Part shown: positions 224 through 19,497 of the stretch, one piece after another
Numbering within the stretch: the stretch's first letter is position 1
Layout of the letters: the number at the start of each line of letters is the position of its first letter
DNA from: a virus
Length of the DNA: 64,000 bases
Virus record (IMG/VR): IMGVR_UViG_3300030339_000025
Reading direction: 5' to 3' (one strand)
Translations under genes and position numbers: made by a program
Notes under the pieces: generated by a model
Seen by the model: only the letters and a program-made list of their open reading frames with translations
Database searches by the model: none
What the model was told of the DNA's origin: nothing

Positions 224-715
224 TTATTTTAAATTAATAAATTTTCCACGAATTCCACAATATTTTAATATTTCTACATTATTTTTGCCATATGCTACAA
301 GAACAGATGGTGCTCCAGCATTTGCTGATGCTTTTTCACCTGTTACATAATGAAAAAATAATCTACCTTCAATAAATAATAGAGCATCAGCTTTATTCCA
401 CACATGATCAAAAAACATTCTAGTTTCAGTTCTGGCAAATATTAATGCTATTCCATTACCATGTTCGGCAAGTTTGTTCAACCAATCCGCAGCTTGTAAC
501 CCATATGGTGGATTACACCAAACTCTACCAAACCATTTTTGTTTTAGTCCATTATCTTCAATTGTAAATTTATTTTTTGCTGTAGTCCAAGGTGATATTA
601 TTGGCGCACAAGGATCTAAATCAAAAATATCTAAAGCATCTAAAATATGTGGTGGTGTTAACCATTCATCATTTTGCATATTTGATGATTGATGCGATCC
701 TATTCCTTTTCTCAT
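224..715 (-). CDS. phage-type DNA N6-adenine methyltransferase (Dam-like)
   Basis: NPPY catalytic motif (WCNPPYG), overall similarity to phage Dam MTase family; inference from motif and length. Confidence 0.7.
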   Translation of the reverse strand: MRKGIGSHQSSNMQNDEWLTPPHILDALDIFDLDPCAPIISPWTTAKNKFTIEDNGLKQKWFGRVWCNPPYGLQAADWLNKLAEHGNGIALIFARTETRMFFDHVWNKADALLFIEGRLFFHYVTGEKASANAGAPSVLVAYGKNNVEILKYCGIRGKFINLK

Positions 716-8480: not shown

Positions 8481-9641
8481 TTATAATATTATTTCATGTA
8501 TAGTTTCATTAAAATAACTAAATTTTAATTTTACTTTACTTTCATCTACAATTATTCTATTTATAATAAAAAAATAATTTACGTTTTTTGCTATATGAGG
8601 ATATAATGCACCATATGATATATCAAAATTGCCATCATTATTTAAATCTATATAAGAATTAATGGTAATATTATATAAATCTTTATAACATTGAAAATTA
8701 ACTTGGTTATTTGTTCTTAATATATTTAATTCTTTAATATATTTTTTATTAAAAAATAAATTATATTTTTTAATAATTTCATCATTAATAATATCAAATA
8801 TATTATCACTATCATTATTAGTAATTAATATTCTGTCAGATTTACTAAATTCAGAGTAAAAAGCTATAATATAACTTGATGTTATTGCAATAAATGTTTT
8901 ATTAAAATCGTTGAAATTATGTTTTGTTAATGTATAACAATATGGACCAGATGCTCTACCAATTATTATATTACAAAACGTTGATAAATAAGATATTTCA
9001 TTCAAATCTGGTAAATTACAATTTATAAGATTGTTAGTAAATAAAATATTATCTTTTACTATATCTATTTTTTTAGTTAATATAAAATCAATATTTGGAT
9101 ATATATCTGATAATTTGTTAATTATAGAATCAAGTAAAATATTTGATTGAGCTGACAACACATCACCATTGCAAATTAGAATTTTAAATTTTTCATTATT
9201 TTTAATATATTTATCTACATTTTCTATTTCGAATTTTGAATAATCTATTTCTGGAATGTAAGAATTTTTTTCATTTAATTGTATAGTGAGTTTATTGTAA
9301 ATAAAAGAATAATATTTATAATATGCATCAAGTAAGGATTTATATGCTAACCATTCATTATCTTTTAATGCGAAATAATAAAGAATATTTGTTCTCATAA
9401 AGTGAATGTTTATATAAACATCTTGATTTATCTTATAATATGTTTGATCTATAAAACAATTTTCATTTAATTTTCCAAATTTAAGATTTTGTATATCAGA
9501 TAATAATTTTGACGATGATTTTTTTTCTAATATATAATATTCATCAAAATCAGTTTTATATATTATATCTTTCATAAATTCTCTATAATAATGTAAATCA
9601 CCATTGTGACAATTGAAATTATTAAAATAAAGTATTTTCAT
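8481..9641 (-). CDS. hypothetical protein in glycan operon
   Basis: 386-aa ORF, Asn/Ile/Tyr-rich. Confidence 0.3.
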   Translation of the reverse strand: MKILYFNNFNCHNGDLHYYREFMKDIIYKTDFDEYYILEKKSSSKLLSDIQNLKFGKLNENCFIDQTYYKINQDVYINIHFMRTNILYYFALKDNEWLAYKSLLDAYYKYYSFIYNKLTIQLNEKNSYIPEIDYSKFEIENVDKYIKNNEKFKILICNGDVLSAQSNILLDSIINKLSDIYPNIDFILTKKIDIVKDNILFTNNLINCNLPDLNEISYLSTFCNIIIGRASGPYCYTLTKHNFNDFNKTFIAITSSYIIAFYSEFSKSDRILITNNDSDNIFDIINDEIIKKYNLFFNKKYIKELNILRTNNQVNFQCYKDLYNITINSYIDLNNDGNFDISYGALYPHIAKNVNYFFIINRIIVDESKVKLKFSYFNETIHEIIL

Positions 9642-10842
9642 TTATATTTAATGTTTTTAATATAGATTTATAAACTTGATCTGGCGTTGGATGGCATTCA
9701 TACGTTAATTTATTTAAATAACAAATACCAGATTTTAATATTTGAGTACTATTGGTTTGATCAATTGATATTTTTGGATTTGCTAGGCATTCAGCTTGAC
9801 ATATACCTCTAACATAACTTAAATTATAATTTTCTATTCCTTTCCTTTTTCTATAATAACTTGTGTCCCAAGATGTTGACAATTCTGTAATATGATTATC
9901 TAAATTACAAAGTGATAATATATATAATCCATTATTCATAGTTACAAATGTTTTACTTTTATTTATTATATGATAAGCTTGTGAAATTGTATTTTGACAA
10001 GGATTATTTAATAAATTTAATCCATTTTTAATTTGAATATTAGAAAATTTTTTTGTTAGATTAGAATCTAAATATGTTTCTTTTCCTATTGCAACTATTG
10101 GAATATGCTCTTGTATTAATTCTATAAATTTTTGCCAATTGTTGTGACCCCAAGTTCTTTCAGGTTCTGTTTCAGATGGATTTATACAAATAAAATTTTC
10201 AGGTAAATTTTTAATATTCTCAAAAGGATCTGGATAAAATTCCATATCAAGTTCATTTGATTTTAATTGAAATCCACAATTATATGCACAAATTTGTTTA
10301 TGATCTATCAATCTCCAATTTGTATTCATAAGATTAAATAAGTGATGTATATCAAAATTAGTATCAAATGAATCTAATAATTGATTTAAATTATTATTTA
10401 TTTGTATAATTTTCTCAATATATGGATTATTAATAAATGCTGATGATATATAGGTTAATATTATAATCTTTTGATTATATATTTCTGACATTTTTTTTAT
10501 TGTTGGCGTTGCTGCTAAATTATCACCAATACCAACTTCTGAATGTAAAACTAAAACTTGCTTTTTTATTTTTTGATTATAAATAGTTTTAAAATTAAAA
10601 AATTGATCCTTAATTATATTATTGTTATATATAATCTCAACCTTTAACCCCTTTAATTCACTTAATTGTGTTGTTGAATACCATAATTCATTATGATCAA
10701 AAAAAGATAATGTACTATATAATAATATTGTACTATTATTATAAGAATTCCAATCATATAAATTAATTTTAGCTTTTAAAGTATAATCACAAGAGATATA
10801 TGTTTTGTTTTCATCTAAATTACATCTTACATTAAAATTCAT
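9622..10842 (-). CDS. glycosyltransferase, GT9 (heptosyltransferase)-like
   Basis: VLVLHSEVGIGDNLAATPTIKK resembles GT9 N-terminal GD...TP motif; weak. Confidence 0.35.
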   Translation of the reverse strand: MNFNVRCNLDENKTYISCDYTLKAKINLYDWNSYNNSTILLYSTLSFFDHNELWYSTTQLSELKGLKVEIIYNNNIIKDQFFNFKTIYNQKIKKQVLVLHSEVGIGDNLAATPTIKKMSEIYNQKIIILTYISSAFINNPYIEKIIQINNNLNQLLDSFDTNFDIHHLFNLMNTNWRLIDHKQICAYNCGFQLKSNELDMEFYPDPFENIKNLPENFICINPSETEPERTWGHNNWQKFIELIQEHIPIVAIGKETYLDSNLTKKFSNIQIKNGLNLLNNPCQNTISQAYHIINKSKTFVTMNNGLYILSLCNLDNHITELSTSWDTSYYRKRKGIENYNLSYVRGICQAECLANPKISIDQTNSTQILKSGICYLNKLTYECHPTPDQVYKSILKTLNINENTLF

Positions 10843-10846
10843 TTAT

Positions 10847-11598
10847 TTAATTTTTTATATTTTTTAATGCATCATTATAAAATTCTTCAACTCTCTCACT
10901 ACCAATATAACAACACTTTTTGTTTATGCAAGCTTTTGCCGTTGTGGAGATGCCAGAAAATGGATCATATATTAAAGATTTTTCAGGAAAATAGATATGA
11001 ATTAATTTTTCAACTAATTCACTTGAGTATGTTGCTTTTAGTTTAGTTTTAAAGCCATCATTATTTTTAGCTTCTATTAAATTAGTATAGTTTTTATAGA
11101 AATTTTGACCTGTTTTTTCATTAATTGTACTGATTTCTTTATTTGTTATAAAATCATGTAAATGGTTTTTTTTAACAATAATATATATTAATTCGCAAAT
11201 TCTACTCAATTTTGTTGGAGAGGTCTGGAATGGTATACTGGTTTTTTTTTTTTCCAGCTTATCACATCTGCTAGTGTTAAGTTGGTTTGTTTATGTACCT
11301 CTGAGATAAGTAGTTGAGGCAATATTGGATTTTCATTGTGATATGAAATATTGTAACATATCACACCATCATCTTTTAAGATCCTTTCAAATTCTTTAAA
11401 TTCGTTTAATCTTATTGATAAATATTCATCTTCTGGTAAGCCATCTGTTTCAGAATATCCATTATTATAATAACAATCATTTCTTTTACTACATATTGAA
11501 TAAGGTGGAGATGTTATAATTCCAGATATAAATTTATCTGACATTCTATTCATGGTAGTTAAATTATCTTCATTATAAATTTTATTTATTTCTATCAT
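10847..11598 (-). pseudogene. beta-class DNA (N6A/N4C) methyltransferase split in two ORFs at a 12-nt poly(A) tract
   Basis: ORF 11206..11598 carries motif IV SPPY. ORF 10847..11209 carries motif I DPFSGISTT, has a TTG start, and is 1 nt out of frame. A12/T12 homopolymer at 11242-11253 lies just upstream of the frame break. Confidence 0.55.
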
Positions 11599-11798
11599 TA
11601 ATATTTTATGTTTATATATAAAAAATGAATAAAAAAGTTTTATATATACTTATAAATAAAGAATAATAAATATGAAAACAAAAAAAACATTCACAATAGA
11701 TGAAAAACTTTGGAAAAAATTTGAAATTATTTCTAATAAATTGTCTATCAATAAATCATTATATTTTGAAAATTGTATAAAAAAATTAATAAAGGAAA

Positions 11799-12926
11799 AT
11801 GATAATTCAGAAAACGATAAAATTTAAAGTAAATAGTAAAGATATAAAATATTACAATAATTTAGGTTATAATATAAATTCATGTGTTGAAATAGAAATA
11901 CCCATAATAGATTTACAAAAAGGTAGTTGTAGAAAAATAAAAGTTAAGTGCGATATATGTGATGATGAAAAAATGTTATCTTATGCCATGTATAATATGA
12001 ATATTAAAAAAACTAATATTTATTGTTGTTGTGAAAAATGTGCAAATATTAAACGTGAAAAAACAAATATTAAAAAATATGGTAAGAAATATCAAGTTGA
12101 AACTGATAATTTTAAAATTAAATCTAAGAAAACAAAATTAGAAAAATATAACGATGAAGGTTATACAAATAGAGAGAAATATATTGAAACATGTGAAAAA
12201 AAATATAATTGCATTAATGTTTTTCAAACAGATGAAGTTAAAGAAAAGTTAAGAATAACAAAAAAGGAGAAATATGATAACGAAAGCTATAATAATTATA
12301 ATAAAATTAAATTAACAAAAAAAGAAAAATATAATGATGAAAATTATAATAATCATGAAAAATATGTTGAAACCTGTTTAGAGAAATATAATGTGGATAA
12401 CACATTATCACTTATAAATAAAGAAGATAGAATAAATAATATTAAGGAATGGTTTAAAAATAATCCAGAGGAACGTATAAAACGAAAAATATGGATGGCA
12501 TCTGATAAATTTAAACAAAAATCTAAAAAAACATGCGTAGAGAGATATGGCGTAGACCATCCTATGCATCTTGATTCAGTTGTTTTAAAAAATCATATAT
12601 CTGGATATTGGCTGAAAAAATATAAAGATACAGAATTATATTATAGAGGAACATATGAACTTAATTTTTTAGATAAATACTATAATAAAATAGATATTAA
12701 TAATTGTAAATCATTATATTATATTTTTAATAATAAAAAAAGAAAATATTATCCTGATTTTTTTATTGAAAGTTTAAATTTGATAATTGAAATAAAATCT
12801 ACATACACCTATAATAAGTTTTTAGAAATGAATTTAGAAAAACAAGCAGAATCTATAAGAAGTGGATTTAATTTTATATTTATTATAGATAAACATTATA
12901 CAGAATTTGAAAATTGTTTAAAATAA
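11799..12926 (+). CDS. putative PD-(D/E)xK nuclease with N-terminal Cys-rich region and internal EKYNDExYNN repeats
   Basis: C-terminal YYPDFFIESLNLIIEIK fits PD...ExK; ~2.5 internal ~40-aa repeats (TKKEKYDNESYNN...). Confidence 0.35.
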   Translation: MIIQKTIKFKVNSKDIKYYNNLGYNINSCVEIEIPIIDLQKGSCRKIKVKCDICDDEKMLSYAMYNMNIKKTNIYCCCEKCANIKREKTNIKKYGKKYQVETDNFKIKSKKTKLEKYNDEGYTNREKYIETCEKKYNCINVFQTDEVKEKLRITKKEKYDNESYNNYNKIKLTKKEKYNDENYNNHEKYVETCLEKYNVDNTLSLINKEDRINNIKEWFKNNPEERIKRKIWMASDKFKQKSKKTCVERYGVDHPMHLDSVVLKNHISGYWLKKYKDTELYYRGTYELNFLDKYYNKIDINNCKSLYYIFNNKKRKYYPDFFIESLNLIIEIKSTYTYNKFLEMNLEKQAESIRSGFNFIFIIDKHYTEFENCLK

Positions 12927-12961: not shown

Positions 12962-12974
12962 TATTATTAATTTA

Positions 12975-15900
12975 TTAATTAAATAGGTATTTAATACCAA
13001 ACATCATTTGCCATCTTGAACTAATACCTGTTGAATTTTGGTATGGTTGAGTAAATGGAGTTGTTCCTGTCTGGAATGGAAGCGAAAATGAAGGAGTTTT
13101 TCCATCTGCAGCGAGACCTTCATATTTTAATATGTTAGTAGCTGTAGGAATTTTAACAACACCCCAATCTCTGTTAATTAAGTTTCCAGCATTAATCATA
13201 TCCACTGAAAACTTAAGTGTGTGTGTCTTAAATTTAATATCTTGTGTAATATTTAAATCTAAGTGACTAAAGTATGGCGCTACAGTTGCATTTCTTTTAG
13301 AGTATTGACCCCTGTGAGTATTAAGATAGGTTGAATTAGAAATAAAAGCGTCTAATTGTGACCAAATTTGTGCAGATGTTCTTGTGTCAGTAACACCTGT
13401 TGTAATTGTACCTAAACCTCCAGAGCCGACTTTAACTAGGTTGATGTCAGCAATTGTTTTTGGAATATACATCAAGTCATTACCTGAATTACCATCACCA
13501 TTTAAGTCACCATTATAAACATATGAATTTACACCGTTATTAGTTAATTCGTAAATTGCTCCAAATGTTGTAGCAAGATATTTTCCTTCATTTAGTTTGT
13601 AAGCGAAGTTGGCAATAAGTCTGTTTGGCTGATAATATGACGCATAACCCAAATTAGCCGCATTAGGATCCTGATTAGAAACAGGTACTGCACTCCATAA
13701 TGACGAGGCTGTTGATCCATATTCTGCGGTGTTCTTGGATACTGAACGTGTGTATGCTATACCATAGGCTAAATTTTCAGTAGTTCTTTGAATTTTTGCA
13801 GTCAAAGTGTAAACATAGCCTTTACTTGAATTACTCATTAAAATTGCATTACCTATATTAGGATTTTCTAAGGTCGCTGTTGGCGTTCCTGCATAATATT
13901 TGTTAGTATTTGCAACCGAAGTTAAGTAACGGGTTCTGTTATCAACACCACCTAATGCAAATCCGTTGGACTCATTTAAATTTATGTTAGAGTAATAAAC
14001 TGCATTAATGTCTTGTGTATAATTGTATTCAGCGCCAATCATCCAGCCATCTTCCAATCTCTTATCAATAGCTAAAGATGACTTCCAAGCTGTTGGATAT
14101 TTAAAGTTGCTAGAAACCAAAGCAGTACTATAAGAAGCATTAGCAGATCCAGCTGTTGGTCTTAAAGCATTAGGATCAACATTAAACGCTGTTTTGTTAG
14201 CTGCATTGGTGAATGAACCAAATTGAATACCATTGTTTGAAGCCTGGTTAGAAATCCAAACGAATGGTGGAGGTCCTGCGAAGATACCAGTACCTCCTCT
14301 GACTTGTAATGTTTTATCACCTTTAGGATTCCAGTTGAAACCTAATCTTGGTGAAACAATAATATTATTCATTGGAGCTTTACCAATGTTATAAGTCGAT
14401 CCATCTTTGAATTTTAATGCATCAAATGTTGGATTATCTGTCATTGACTGTTTGTAGAAGGTTTCATCAAGTCTCAAGCCAAAAGTTAAGGTGAAATCAT
14501 TTGATACTTTCCACTTATCCTGTATGAACTGAGATAATTCTGTTGATCCGGCATTAGCCCAAGGAAATTCACCATTAGGTAAAGCTGAATATTGCAAGTA
14601 GTATGATTTAGCATTTAACTTTCCGTTTTTTGCTGAATTATAAAAGTCTGTCAAGCTATTGAATTGATAAACACCTTGATAACCAGGCGCAAATGCGTTT
14701 TGATATTTTTTAATTGAGTTTTGAGTACCTACTGTGAGTTCATGCGCACCTTTATAATAAGTTAAGATGTCATTTAATTGATAAACGTCTGTATTCAATA
14801 CGTTATTGTAAGTGTACATTTCGTAACCAAAGGTTGTATAAATATTACCATTGTTTAAAATATCAACTAATGGGAAAGTTCCACTACTAGAATGAGGAGA
14901 ACGGAAATCTCTCAATGCAGTATAACCAATTTGTAATTTATTTGATAGCCTATTATTGAAATGAGTATTCAATTCAGCAATAAAAATATTAAAGTTATTA
15001 TTGATTACATAACCACTACCATAGAAAGGCATTGAATAGGTACCTGGCTGCCCACCAGTTGTTTGACCAGAGCCTGGTCTTGAAGTAGATGCAAATTGAT
15101 CGGATGATGATTTTAAGTAGTTGTATTTTAATGTAAAAGTATTCTTACTATTAATGTTCCAGTCTAATTTTGCAGTAATTTTATCAGAATAGGTTTTGAA
15201 AGTATAACCTTGAAAAGCACCTGGATCATATCCAAACTTGGTCTTTAAGAAACTAGATAAAGCTGATAAAGTGTCAGCGTTTGCTTGAGAATAGTTTCCA
15301 CCAGCAGCATGAGATGCGTCTGAAGGCAGCATGGAAGTCGCTGGTGCATCTTGTCTAACTTGTTCTCCACTTACGAAGAAAAATAATTTGTCTTTGATAA
15401 TTGGACCTCCTAAACTAAATCCTTTGATAGAATAATCAAAAGGAGTTTTTACAACTGTTGTTGGACCAACATTGTAACCTAAATAATTTTCATTCCTAGA
15501 ATATTGATAAATAGTTCCTTTGAAAGTATTTGTTCCACTTTTAGTTACGGTGTTAACGCCTGTTCCAGCAAATCCACCTTGCTTAACATCATATGGTGAT
15601 ACGTTAACTTGAATTTGTTCAATAGCTTCTAATGAAATTGGTTGTGCGGATGTTTGTCCACCTAAGATAGATGATAGACCAAATGAGTTATTAAAATTAG
15701 CTCCATCAACTGTCATATTATTATATTGACTACTTCTGCCGCCAATATTCAATCCTTGGGAGGTAGGTTCTAATTTTACAAAATCTTGAATTGAACGATT
15801 TATTGTTGGTAAACGATCAACTTGAGCTCTTGTTATTAACTCCTGAGAACCAGTTCTTGAACTACTAAATGTCTTGTCTTGAACGCCTTTTACAATAACT

Positions 15901-16250
15901 TCTCCTACTTGGATCGCTTCATCAGTAAGTTCAAAATTTTGTTTAAATGTTTGACCTAAATTCAGAAAGATATTGTTTATTTTTTCTGATTTAAGTCCAA
16001 CAAAAGCTGTTGTTAAAGTATATGGCCCACCAATTTTTAAATTTGGTAAGTTATAACGACCATCAGTTCTAGTCGTTGTCATATACTTAGTGCCTGTTGG
16101 AACATGAACTGCCATTACTACAACATCTTGTAATGGCGACTTGCCTTCTAAAATTGTTCCTGAAATTTCAGAAGTGGTTTCTTGTGATTTTGCTATTATT
16201 GAAAACAATATAAGCATTATCACTAACATCACTCTTTTTAATTTTCTCAT
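12975..16250 (-). CDS. TonB-dependent outer-membrane receptor, SusC/RagA-like
   Basis: Signal peptide MRKLKRVMLVIMLILFSIIA. Carboxypeptidase-regulatory-like N-domain, plug and a large beta-barrel. C-terminal ...GIKYLFN aromatic terminus. Confidence 0.8.
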   Translation of the reverse strand: MRKLKRVMLVIMLILFSIIAKSQETTSEISGTILEGKSPLQDVVVMAVHVPTGTKYMTTTRTDGRYNLPNLKIGGPYTLTTAFVGLKSEKINNIFLNLGQTFKQNFELTDEAIQVGEVIVKGVQDKTFSSSRTGSQELITRAQVDRLPTINRSIQDFVKLEPTSQGLNIGGRSSQYNNMTVDGANFNNSFGLSSILGGQTSAQPISLEAIEQIQVNVSPYDVKQGGFAGTGVNTVTKSGTNTFKGTIYQYSRNENYLGYNVGPTTVVKTPFDYSIKGFSLGGPIIKDKLFFFVSGEQVRQDAPATSMLPSDASHAAGGNYSQANADTLSALSSFLKTKFGYDPGAFQGYTFKTYSDKITAKLDWNINSKNTFTLKYNYLKSSSDQFASTSRPGSGQTTGGQPGTYSMPFYGSGYVINNNFNIFIAELNTHFNNRLSNKLQIGYTALRDFRSPHSSSGTFPLVDILNNGNIYTTFGYEMYTYNNVLNTDVYQLNDILTYYKGAHELTVGTQNSIKKYQNAFAPGYQGVYQFNSLTDFYNSAKNGKLNAKSYYLQYSALPNGEFPWANAGSTELSQFIQDKWKVSNDFTLTFGLRLDETFYKQSMTDNPTFDALKFKDGSTYNIGKAPMNNIIVSPRLGFNWNPKGDKTLQVRGGTGIFAGPPPFVWISNQASNNGIQFGSFTNAANKTAFNVDPNALRPTAGSANASYSTALVSSNFKYPTAWKSSLAIDKRLEDGWMIGAEYNYTQDINAVYYSNINLNESNGFALGGVDNRTRYLTSVANTNKYYAGTPTATLENPNIGNAILMSNSSKGYVYTLTAKIQRTTENLAYGIAYTRSVSKNTAEYGSTASSLWSAVPVSNQDPNAANLGYASYYQPNRLIANFAYKLNEGKYLATTFGAIYELTNNGVNSYVYNGDLNGDGNSGNDLMYIPKTIADINLVKVGSGGLGTITTGVTDTRTSAQIWSQLDAFISNSTYLNTHRGQYSKRNATVAPYFSHLDLNITQDIKFKTHTLKFSVDMINAGNLINRDWGVVKIPTATNILKYEGLAADGKTPSFSLPFQTGTTPFTQPYQNSTGISSRWQMMFGIKYLFN

Positions 16251-19091: not shown

Positions 19092-19110
19092 GATTATTTA
19101 TTTTTTTTTT

Positions 19111-19497
19111 TTAATATTCAAAATCTCTAGCTATTGTCCAATCAATATCATTTATAATATTTTCTAAAGATTTATAAATATCAATATTACCATCATCAAA
19201 CCATATAATGCCTAATATTTTCATATTCATAGTAGTCAATGATGCTATGCATAATCTAGTTTTTAATACTGTTGGGTATTCTTCTTGATATTTTTTTATG
19301 AGTTGATATGGTTCATTATATGTAATTTTATTGCATATTTCAATAGCGTTATCTATAAAAATATGTTCATCATCAACTACTCTTTTTACACTTGATATAT
19401 ATACACCAGAATATGTGTTACTAGTATATGTACAATCTATTTTTATTTCTTCATTTAATTTGTAAGTTTTAAATGGTCCTGTTCCAGCTTGAATCAT
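19111..19497 (-). CDS. hypothetical protein
   Basis: 128-aa ORF. Confidence 0.3.
   Translation of the reverse strand: MIQAGTGPFKTYKLNEEIKIDCTYTSNTYSGVYISSVKRVVDDEHIFIDNAIEICNKITYNEPYQLIKKYQEEYPTVLKTRLCIASLTTMNMKILGIIWFDDGNIDIYKSLENIINDIDWTIARDFEY

Follow-up and report, generated by a model that had tools for sequence, protein, structure and literature searches.

We analyzed a DNA methyltransferase gene on the minus strand of a 64,000-nucleotide (nt) stretch of viral DNA (IMG/VR record IMGVR_UViG_3300030339_000025; the whole stretch is hereafter called the window), in which the coding sequence is divided between two adjacent open reading frames (ORFs) at a run of 12 adenines (A12; Table 1). 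On the gene strand, the tract reads TGG AAA AAA AAA AAA CCA (W-KKKK-P). The upstream ORF passes it as ...DVISW-KKKK, continues for 11 out-of-frame codons (PVYHSRPLQQN) and ends at a TGA stop; it is one single-nucleotide polymorphism (SNP) away from P0121, a protein present on nine public contigs. The second ORF lies in the -1 frame relative to the first, and the -1 frame is open through the tract. The TTG codon given in Table 1 is the start listed by the program, and the conserved coding frame is already open from the tract onward.

One-base repair of the gene produced a single PF01555 match covering positions 2-219 of 221, with a score of 90.6 bits (Pfam cut-off 26.7). More than 1,300 homologues of approximately 250 amino acids (aa) are encoded by a single ORF. 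They are at most 82% identical to the repaired protein, and all contain W-KK-x-x-x-[IL]PFQ, which corresponds to TSIPFQTSPTKLSR in the -1 frame of the window. Because the homologues read W-KK-x-x-x-[IL]PFQ at this site, the frame change was placed inside the tract. A tract of A10 gives WKKKTSIPFQ and a protein of 249 aa, the exact length of the homologues, and A13 gives 250 aa with one extra Lys. These results confirmed that both ORFs are halves of one beta-class PF01555 DNA methyltransferase, separated by A12 alone. A preliminary description of this DNA had placed SPPY and DPFSGISTT in adjacent ORFs one nucleotide out of register, with the break at an A12 run encoding KKKK; both statements hold, as the two Pfam halves join upon one-base repair and the homologues locate the frame change in the tract itself.

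Table 1. Features of the split methyltransferase locus and other features of the window discussed in the text
Feature	Position	Strand	Remarks
N-terminal half ORF, 130 aa	11206..11598	-	PF01555 positions 2-90, E=1.4e-10; SPPY (motif IV) at residues 30-33
ORF with DPFSGISTT (motif I), 120 aa, TTG start 11209	11209-10847	-	PF01555 positions 99-219, E=4.6e-12
C-terminal coding segment, -1 frame	10847..11241	-	TSIPFQTSPTKLSRICE ... DPFSGISTT ... stop
A12 homopolymer (T12 on the + strand), frame break	11242..11253	-	
42-nt block directly 5' of the tract, ending at TGG	11254..11295	-	CATAAACAAACCAACTTAACACTAGCAGATGTGATAAGCTGG
Divergent intergenic region	11599..11671	.	block conserved in lineages bearing the ribbon-helix-helix gene: ATTTATT.GTATTTATTTATA..TATATATAAAC
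51-aa ribbon-helix-helix (Arc-like) protein	11672..11827	+	PF12651, E=1e-5; phrog_3180 Arc-like repressor
375-aa DUF7487 homing-endonuclease-like protein	11799..12926	+	PF24308, E=1.6e-26; phrog_12131, phrog_3339 'homing endonuclease'
Second, intact methyltransferase, Dam-like	224-715	-	PF05869 / phrog_111; NPPY motif
Other 12-nt homopolymer of the window, intergenic	19101-19112		TAA stop + A10, between ORFs 19497-19111 and 19091-18264
1091-aa TonB-dependent-receptor-like protein	12975-16250	-	CarboxypepD_reg, Plug, outer-membrane beta-barrel
803-aa vault-type protein	30782-33193		Major Vault Protein shoulder and repeat domains, SPFH/Band-7 domain
774-aa RCC1-repeat protein	60285-62609		RHS repeat

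In the repaired protein, motif IV lies N-terminal to motif I (near residue 212), which is the circular permutation of the beta class. The protein also matches the PADLOC models of Type II methyltransferases (E=6e-26) and phrog_67. Among solved structures, the nearest chains belong to a DpnA-type adenine enzyme, an N4-cytosine enzyme and CcrM, each at E of about 1e-7 or weaker. The SPPY form of motif IV is commoner in N4-cytosine enzymes, and it hints at this specificity here. Motif I of the window is slightly off the consensus (GIS for GIG), and no residue that is invariant in the family alignment has been lost from the window; approximately 45 of these residues lie in the downstream half. Taken together, the split gene appears to encode an orphan, small Type II-like phage methyltransferase. 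The window carries a second methyltransferase, which is Dam-like and intact; therefore, the phage is not without methylation capacity while the split gene is off.

At the 25% guanine-cytosine (GC) content of the window, a 12-nt A/T run is not improbable by itself: two such runs were observed compared with 2.85 expected from dinucleotide shuffles. The other 12-nt homopolymer was rejected as a second split gene as it is intergenic. The coding sequence tells a different story. In window ORFs of at least 100 aa, AAA makes up 90% of the Lys codons, and Lys-Lys-Lys runs encoded entirely by AAA numbered 0 of 10 compared with 7.4 expected; coding sequence otherwise avoids A9 and longer runs, and the genome thus treats long A-runs as a hazard. 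The only KKKK among the window ORFs sits in the methyltransferase and is encoded by AAA throughout. Furthermore, a scan for overlapping long frames of one gene identified the methyltransferase as the only gene in the 64-kb window that is split at a homopolymer. Three features are non-random: the tract coincides exactly with the point at which the frame of a conserved domain breaks, runs of A9 or more are otherwise avoided in coding sequence, and the same site is expanded in many relatives.

Haplotypes of the window lineage were retrieved without bias through the neighbouring 375-aa protein, whose exact sequence occurs on 21 public contigs. The DNA of six of these was compared (L094-L099), nine more are near-duplicates of L094, and L099 ends before the tract. 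Together with the window, the retrieved contigs represent five haplotypes that are 1-46 substitutions or indels apart over the 5-7 kb compared. L094, L096, L097 and L098, from JGI and ENA MEGAHIT assemblies, carry A12 like the window, and L095 carries A11 in a haplotype with 10 additional SNPs. A12 was also found on 13, 6 and 5 contigs of other lineages. Because A12 recurs over independent assemblies, the frameshift is a property of the DNA, and a one- or two-base error shared across assemblies is improbable. The simple assembly error for which the preliminary description had allowed is thus unlikely, with A12 present in further haplotypes from both JGI and ENA and in many contigs of four further lineages.

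The haplotypes also differ in other respects. L098 (ERZ27249838 k141_543739) matches the window over the first ~615 nt of the methyltransferase, A12 included, and its 3' end of ~130 nt (aligned to window positions 10847-10980) is strongly diverged, in frame and carries the consensus motif I DPFIGIGTT; this contig is a recombination mosaic inside the broken gene. Compared with the window, L096 and L097 show T3 extended to T4 at 9641, the junction of ORFs 8481-9641 and 9622-10842, which changes a 406-aa product to 401 aa, and an 8-nt insertion (TTATTAAT) at 12964, in the spacer before the TonB-dependent-receptor-like gene. These two differences are likewise indels in A/T-rich sequence.

The tract was then compared across relatives that were collected by a scan of IMG/VR loci, a scan of metagenome DNA and a protein search with the N-terminal half followed by DNA retrieval. 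Across 49 IMG/VR loci, the TGG is followed by an in-frame A2-A8 run that AAG or other codons break up; L049 is the exception, being syntenic with the window, 81% identical in nucleotides and out of frame with A15. From metagenome DNA came two further tract loci, L069 with an in-frame A10 and L060 with an out-of-frame A11. The protein search returned many truncated proteins stopping at or just past WKKKK, and retrieval of their DNA revealed further out-of-frame lineages with A12, namely those of P0133 (L105-112, 13 contigs), P0125 (L102-104, six contigs), P0135 (L114-117, five contigs) and P0122 (L118, one contig), or with A11 (P0124, L113, one contig); a tract of A14, also out of frame, was deduced from the peptide for P0126 (two contigs). 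In-frame A10 tracts were found in the lineages of P0047 (L100/L101, two contigs) and P0008 (L119/L120, four contigs). Eight DNA-verified lineages are therefore out of frame with A11, A12 or A15 (the window, L049, L060, L102, L113, L105, L114 and L118), and three tract lineages are in frame, all of them with A10. Neither A13 nor A16 turned up in the searches of the protein collection and of the IMG/VR and metagenome DNA, and a protein search for A13 alleles with a 67-aa junction peptide carrying the in-frame KKKK returned one candidate only, which was uninformative.

The tract alleles are mutually 68-92% identical, and among them are four sister pairs of unequal tract length. L100/L101 (A10, in frame) and L060 (A11, out of frame) differ by 11 synonymous and 0 non-synonymous substitutions; L119 (A10) and L049 (A15) share 91.5% nucleotide identity; L102 (A12) and L113 (A11) share 87%; and the fourth pair is the window (A12) and L095 (A11). 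Two of these are on/off pairs. Thus, the tract lies inside the ORF and sets its reading frame, which A10 or A13 restores; its length varies between haplotypes and between sister lineages at the level of consensus sequences, with on and off forms in two lineages; and by these comparisons the tract appears to evolve faster than the gene. The length variability that the preliminary description had proposed was therefore borne out, and the invariant tract that it had named as a refutation was not observed: in haplotypes and close relatives, the tracts differ (A12/A11, A10/A11, A10/A15 and A12/A11) while the gene barely does. Outside these collections, the GenBank phages contained no homologue closer than 40.7%, and a scan of genome contigs yielded only two relatives, L001 and L002 (JALOAD010000013.1 and JALOAD010000034.1), which are family copies 72% and 61% identical to the query. 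Their contigs are binned in a metagenome-assembled genome (MAG) of Candidatus Muiribacterium halophilum and are possibly prophage or mis-binned phage contigs.

The broken alleles have no second lesion. When the tract was reset to A10, a complete ORF of 245-252 aa with all motifs was recovered in 7 of the 7 off lineages that have the whole gene on the contig, and the frame of L105 was open to the contig end. The ratio of non-synonymous to synonymous substitution (dN/dS, Nei-Gojobori) was 0.06-0.25 for both halves in all comparisons, a range that cannot date the frameshifts since synonymous sites are near saturation between most lineages. For the downstream half, pairs of broken alleles gave ~0.06-0.15, indistinguishable from pairs of intact alleles; the broken sisters L102 and L113 gave 0.083 at a proportion of synonymous differences (pS) of 0.46, and the window and L049 gave 0.129. 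Both halves are therefore under purifying selection. Neutral drift at 25% GC over such distances would fill the frame with stops. Either all of the frameshifts arose very recently or selection on the coding capacity continues. As most sampled tract lineages are out of frame, frameshifts that are always recent would need rapid turnover, of the kind that reversible switching or leaky expression supplies.

Overall, we propose, with a little better than even confidence, that the hypermutable poly-A tract acts as a contingency-type on/off switch, reversible and leaky, in an orphan phage methyltransferase that is now in its off phase. The functional tract length would be A10, at the codons W-K-K-K. 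Slipped-strand mispairing during replication would alter the tract length heritably, and the window, at A12, would represent the off phase. Full-length enzyme could then arise by two routes only. Progeny could regain an in-frame tract through renewed slippage, or each infection could yield a low level of enzyme when RNA polymerase slips, or the ribosome slides, at the 12 A's. The tract would in this way be a leaky on/off switch of phage DNA methylation and not a tombstone. A plausible pay-off is bet-hedging, in which methylation may block some host restriction while other defences may attack methylated DNA. Slippage at the DNA level is directly supported by the unequal tract lengths of close relatives, and slippage at the RNA level or ribosome sliding at 12 A's is expected on physical grounds. 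The switching rate, the level of slippage that carries most weight and the selective trade-off are inferred.

Several observations weigh against a reversible switch. No in-frame allele of the window lineage was found in a collection of 5.8 billion protein clusters, in which the best full-length match is 82% identical; therefore, no on/off switching is seen within the window lineage at the consensus level. The consensus A12 is steady over many samples, as a fixed null allele would also appear, and in the absence of A13 and A16 a one-step return from A12 may not yield a working enzyme. In addition, looking up relatives by the truncated product enriches for broken alleles, and the unbiased DNA scans comprise three tract loci (A10, A11 and A15). 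The constancy of A12 over many samples also speaks for a rival in which A12 is stable and the rescue non-heritable, with RNA polymerase stutter (+1 A or -2) or ribosome sliding giving a little enzyme; a potentially harmful methyltransferase would thereby be held at a low dose, as in the leaky frameshifts of endosymbiont poly(A) genes. A12 is modal in five independent lineages and A15 occurs in a sixth, all of the same frame class (+1 nt or -1 shift), no A13 allele was found although it is one step off, the downstream half is under purifying selection, and both slippage on at least nine A/T and the rescue of a frameshifted methyltransferase are documented (PMC5009743, PMC6260861). However, A11 and A14 need the opposite correction and sister lineages hold an intact A10, such that the out-of-frame arrangement is not conserved, and bacterial RNA polymerase rescued poly(A) frameshifts poorly (PMC6260861). 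We consider non-heritable rescue on its own rather unlikely, and it is compatible with the proposed switch, not exclusive of it. It is unlikely, too, that the off alleles are the product of recurrent dead-end inactivation, that is, young and undecayed pseudogenes of a dispensable gene in which A10 is a mutational hot spot. Random drift would place approximately two-thirds of alleles out of frame, and 8 of the 11 lineages and 2 of the 3 loci in the unbiased scans are so; the window lineage has no in-frame allele, its motif I is slightly off the consensus, and the Dam-like methyltransferase is intact. Nevertheless, no second lesion was found in the seven fully readable off lineages or in the readable part of L105, at a GC content of 25% at which stops arise easily, the downstream dN/dS stays at 0.06-0.15 even for broken sisters at pS of ~0.45, and the in-frame expansions A13 and A16 that neutral drift should make are absent.

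A further explanation is a sequencing or assembly artefact, with a true tract of A10 or A13 and an intact gene; long homopolymers are indeed error-prone, and one near-identical contig has A11 where others have A12. This is very improbable in our view, as A12 is repeated in other haplotypes from different projects and assemblers and on 13, 6 and 5 contigs in other lineages, the A11 haplotype carries 10 other SNPs, no other gene of the window is split at a homopolymer, and the errors would need to be +2 or -1, +1, +4 and +5 in different lineages. We regard as extremely improbable a classical programmed -1 ribosomal frameshift on A_AAA_AAA or a two-subunit split enzyme. The slippery heptamer is perfect and the second frame is -1 to the first, and split methyltransferases are known. 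However, the 92 nt downstream of the tract fold in the window at -6.1 kcal/mol (z = 0.19), which is no better than shuffles, most relatives behave alike, and no conserved downstream RNA fold was found in the window and relatives. Moreover, A11 and A14 would need the opposite shift and A10 none. The programmed frameshift that the preliminary description had offered as a source of the full enzyme thus finds no footing in a family that contains both out-of-frame classes (A11/A14 and A12/A15) and in-frame A10, with no downstream structure; the heptamer is present, and the stimulatory structure and a conserved frame arrangement are absent. As for a split enzyme, the invariant PFQTSPTK segment is encoded in neither ORF, the restart codons are not conserved, and the second ORFs of relatives were called at 76-118 aa. 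A gene with programmed transcriptional slippage, of the dnaX or IS-element type, was also considered and rejected: a run of 12 is long enough, but lengths of 10, 11, 12, 14 and 15 occur, and most family members are single ORFs with interrupted A2-A8 runs. Adventitious slippage at the tract is likely.

The tract does not travel alone. The 42-nt block directly upstream shows 0-6 differences among alleles with A10 or longer (the window, L049, L060, L069 and L100-L120) compared with 8-20 in non-tract alleles; the exception is L045, which has five differences in the block, an A6 run and no visible cassette. The tract alleles sharing this block are otherwise 68-82% identical and polyphyletic, and a whole-protein tree intersperses them with non-tract alleles. 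The window and L102, for instance, share 71% identity overall but match at 41 of 42 positions in the block. In a sliding-window comparison, the mutual nucleotide identity of tract alleles rose to 0.85-0.88 only at codons ~96-125 and was ~0.70-0.75 elsewhere, and at the same codons the identity between tract and non-tract alleles was 0.62-0.72.

The block is accompanied by a neighbouring gene for a DUF7487 homing-endonuclease-like protein with a PD-(D/E)xK-like C-terminal motif (PDF...EIK). In every allele with A10 or longer and readable flanks (the window, L049, L060, L069 and L101-L118), a DUF7487 gene adjoins the methyltransferase divergently, and in most of them it is preceded by the 51-aa Arc-like ribbon-helix-helix gene and the conserved intergenic block. 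The ribbon-helix-helix gene overlaps the start of the nuclease gene, and copies 64-67% identical are found in other tract lineages; a scan of the intergenic region for sigma-70 promoters and terminators matched shuffles and was uninformative. An adjacent DUF7487 gene was found at 0 of ~50 non-tract loci, four of which hold a distant paralogue ~1.7-3 kb or more away. L113 has a split DUF7487 gene, and L105-L107 encode a truncated form of 244 aa. The contigs of L119 and L120, which carry the in-frame A10 of P0008, end 21-66 nt upstream of the methyltransferase start, exactly where the cassette would be expected to begin; a presence/absence polymorphism may have broken the assembly there.

DUF7487 was rejected as a cognate restriction enzyme: the protein has no match among the PADLOC restriction-enzyme models, the gene is absent beside ~50 non-tract loci, and in some lineages it has decayed where the methyltransferase halves are kept. 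A Type II restriction-modification system of methyltransferase, controller and restriction endonuclease was likewise rejected, as no restriction endonuclease is consistently linked to the gene. In T4-like phages, free-standing homing endonucleases of the Seg/Mob type are associated with target-site immunity polymorphisms. The locus resembles them in having a patchy, sometimes decayed endonuclease gene beside a conserved gene and a short mosaic patch linked to its presence; unlike them, it shows no co-conversion of the sequence between patch and cassette, where the 5' part of the gene has only a weak excess of similarity, and the nuclease is predicted from sequence. The arrangement of DUF7487 with an Arc-like partner also resembles a controller-nuclease pair. 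The unstable A-run forms part of a short mosaic patch accompanying the endonuclease cassette, and the most economical interpretation is that the patch marks a candidate target or immunity site of the endonuclease, kept in linkage. A further step, which we regard as doubtful, would be that a selfish cassette of DUF7487 and its Arc-like partner spreads with a 42-nt immunity patch ending in the unstable A10, thereby installing in unrelated alleles a hypermutable switch that turns phage DNA methylation on and off or lowers its dose. The off state might then be favoured because methylation hampers the endonuclease or draws in host defences that depend on it.

The wider window, at 25% GC and consisting mostly of ORFans, encodes GIY-YIG/NUMOD3 (SegE-like) homing endonucleases, an endolysin, an RNA ligase, endonuclease VII, a NUDIX protein and a phosphoesterase, along with sugar-nucleotide enzymes and glycosyltransferases. 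Relatives bearing the same methyltransferase are listed in IMG/VR and have ClpP, baseplate-V and tail-spike lyase genes. This gene content indicates that the genome is likely that of a large tailed phage, for which no cultured relative was found among the GenBank phages. Some of the cargo is unusual. The TonB-dependent-receptor-like gene has a GC content of ~34%, above that of its surroundings, and is kept in the syntenic L049 (70-3234), which is unusual for a phage. The vault-type protein, the RCC1-repeat protein and an ankyrin-repeat ORF among the window ORFs scanned give eukaryote-flavoured domains to a phage-like contig. A giant-virus origin, as the vault, RCC1 and ankyrin genes might imply, is not favoured in view of the T4-type homing endonucleases, the endolysin and the baseplate and tail-spike genes of relatives.

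Poly-A tracts in T2 agt, a DNA-modification gene, and in T4 rIIA are phage contingency loci, and the tract of T2 agt trades off two opposing host defences (Gomez, Barrick & Waters 2025, bioRxiv 10.1101/2025.10.21.683753). The present locus is similar in that an A-run lies inside a phage gene whose product modifies DNA, shifts of about one base at the run would switch the gene off and back on, and a trade-off is expected between defences that need the modification and defences that are blocked by it. By this analogy, we suggest as the pay-off that methylation may protect the phage from classical restriction and expose it to methylation-dependent nucleases. Unlike T2 agt, the run is 10-15 instead of 9, the enzyme is a methyltransferase and not a glucosyltransferase, and the evidence is comparative, from metagenome consensus sequences, whereas reversion rates were measured for agt. 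In addition, the off state is the majority in nature here, and the tract is accompanied by the 42-nt patch and the homing-endonuclease-like cassette.

A repeat tract that sets the frame of a methyltransferase ORF is also the basis of bacterial phasevarions (Mod/HsdM; Haemophilus, Neisseria, Helicobacter and Campylobacter). However, those enzymes are of Type III or I, occur in host-adapted bacteria, usually carry tetranucleotide or poly-G/C tracts and control regulons, whereas the enzyme described here is a small Type II-like orphan with a poly-A tract in a phage-like genome, to which the phasevarion concept may not extend. A further comparison is with the poly(A) genes of Buchnera and Blochmannia, whose frameshifts are rescued by transcriptional slippage and in which, as here, a gene of an AT-rich genome has its only break at a long A-run and remains under purifying selection. 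Runs of at least nine A/T give heterogeneous transcripts, and ribosomes slide on A-runs (reviewed in PMC5009743). One documented slippage model, mboIIM2, is itself a DNA methyltransferase gene: when its frameshifted form was transcribed, slippage of RNA polymerase at A/T runs restored full-length protein, and this rescue was strong for T7 polymerase but weak for that of Escherichia coli (PMC6260861). Unlike in these poly(A)-slippage genes, in-frame alleles coexist here in sister lineages, and rescue by slippage is a prediction from sequence.

The interruption of this orphan phage methyltransferase by a homopolymer is real and recurrent, the gene is still under selection, and it probably adds a new natural example to a known type of switch. 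Homopolymer-split phage genes with clean halves are not to be dismissed as pseudogenes or assembly errors. The locus is widely sampled, with both on and off alleles in public metagenomes, and lends itself to comparing read-level tract heterogeneity with methylomes and with the defence repertoires of hosts. The link between the cassette and the 42-nt patch further suggests that recombination can spread unstable tracts among otherwise unrelated alleles. Should the tract truly switch or damp the enzyme, a natural population would provide an example of a phage contingency locus in a gene for DNA modification, a kind of locus known so far only from laboratory coliphages.

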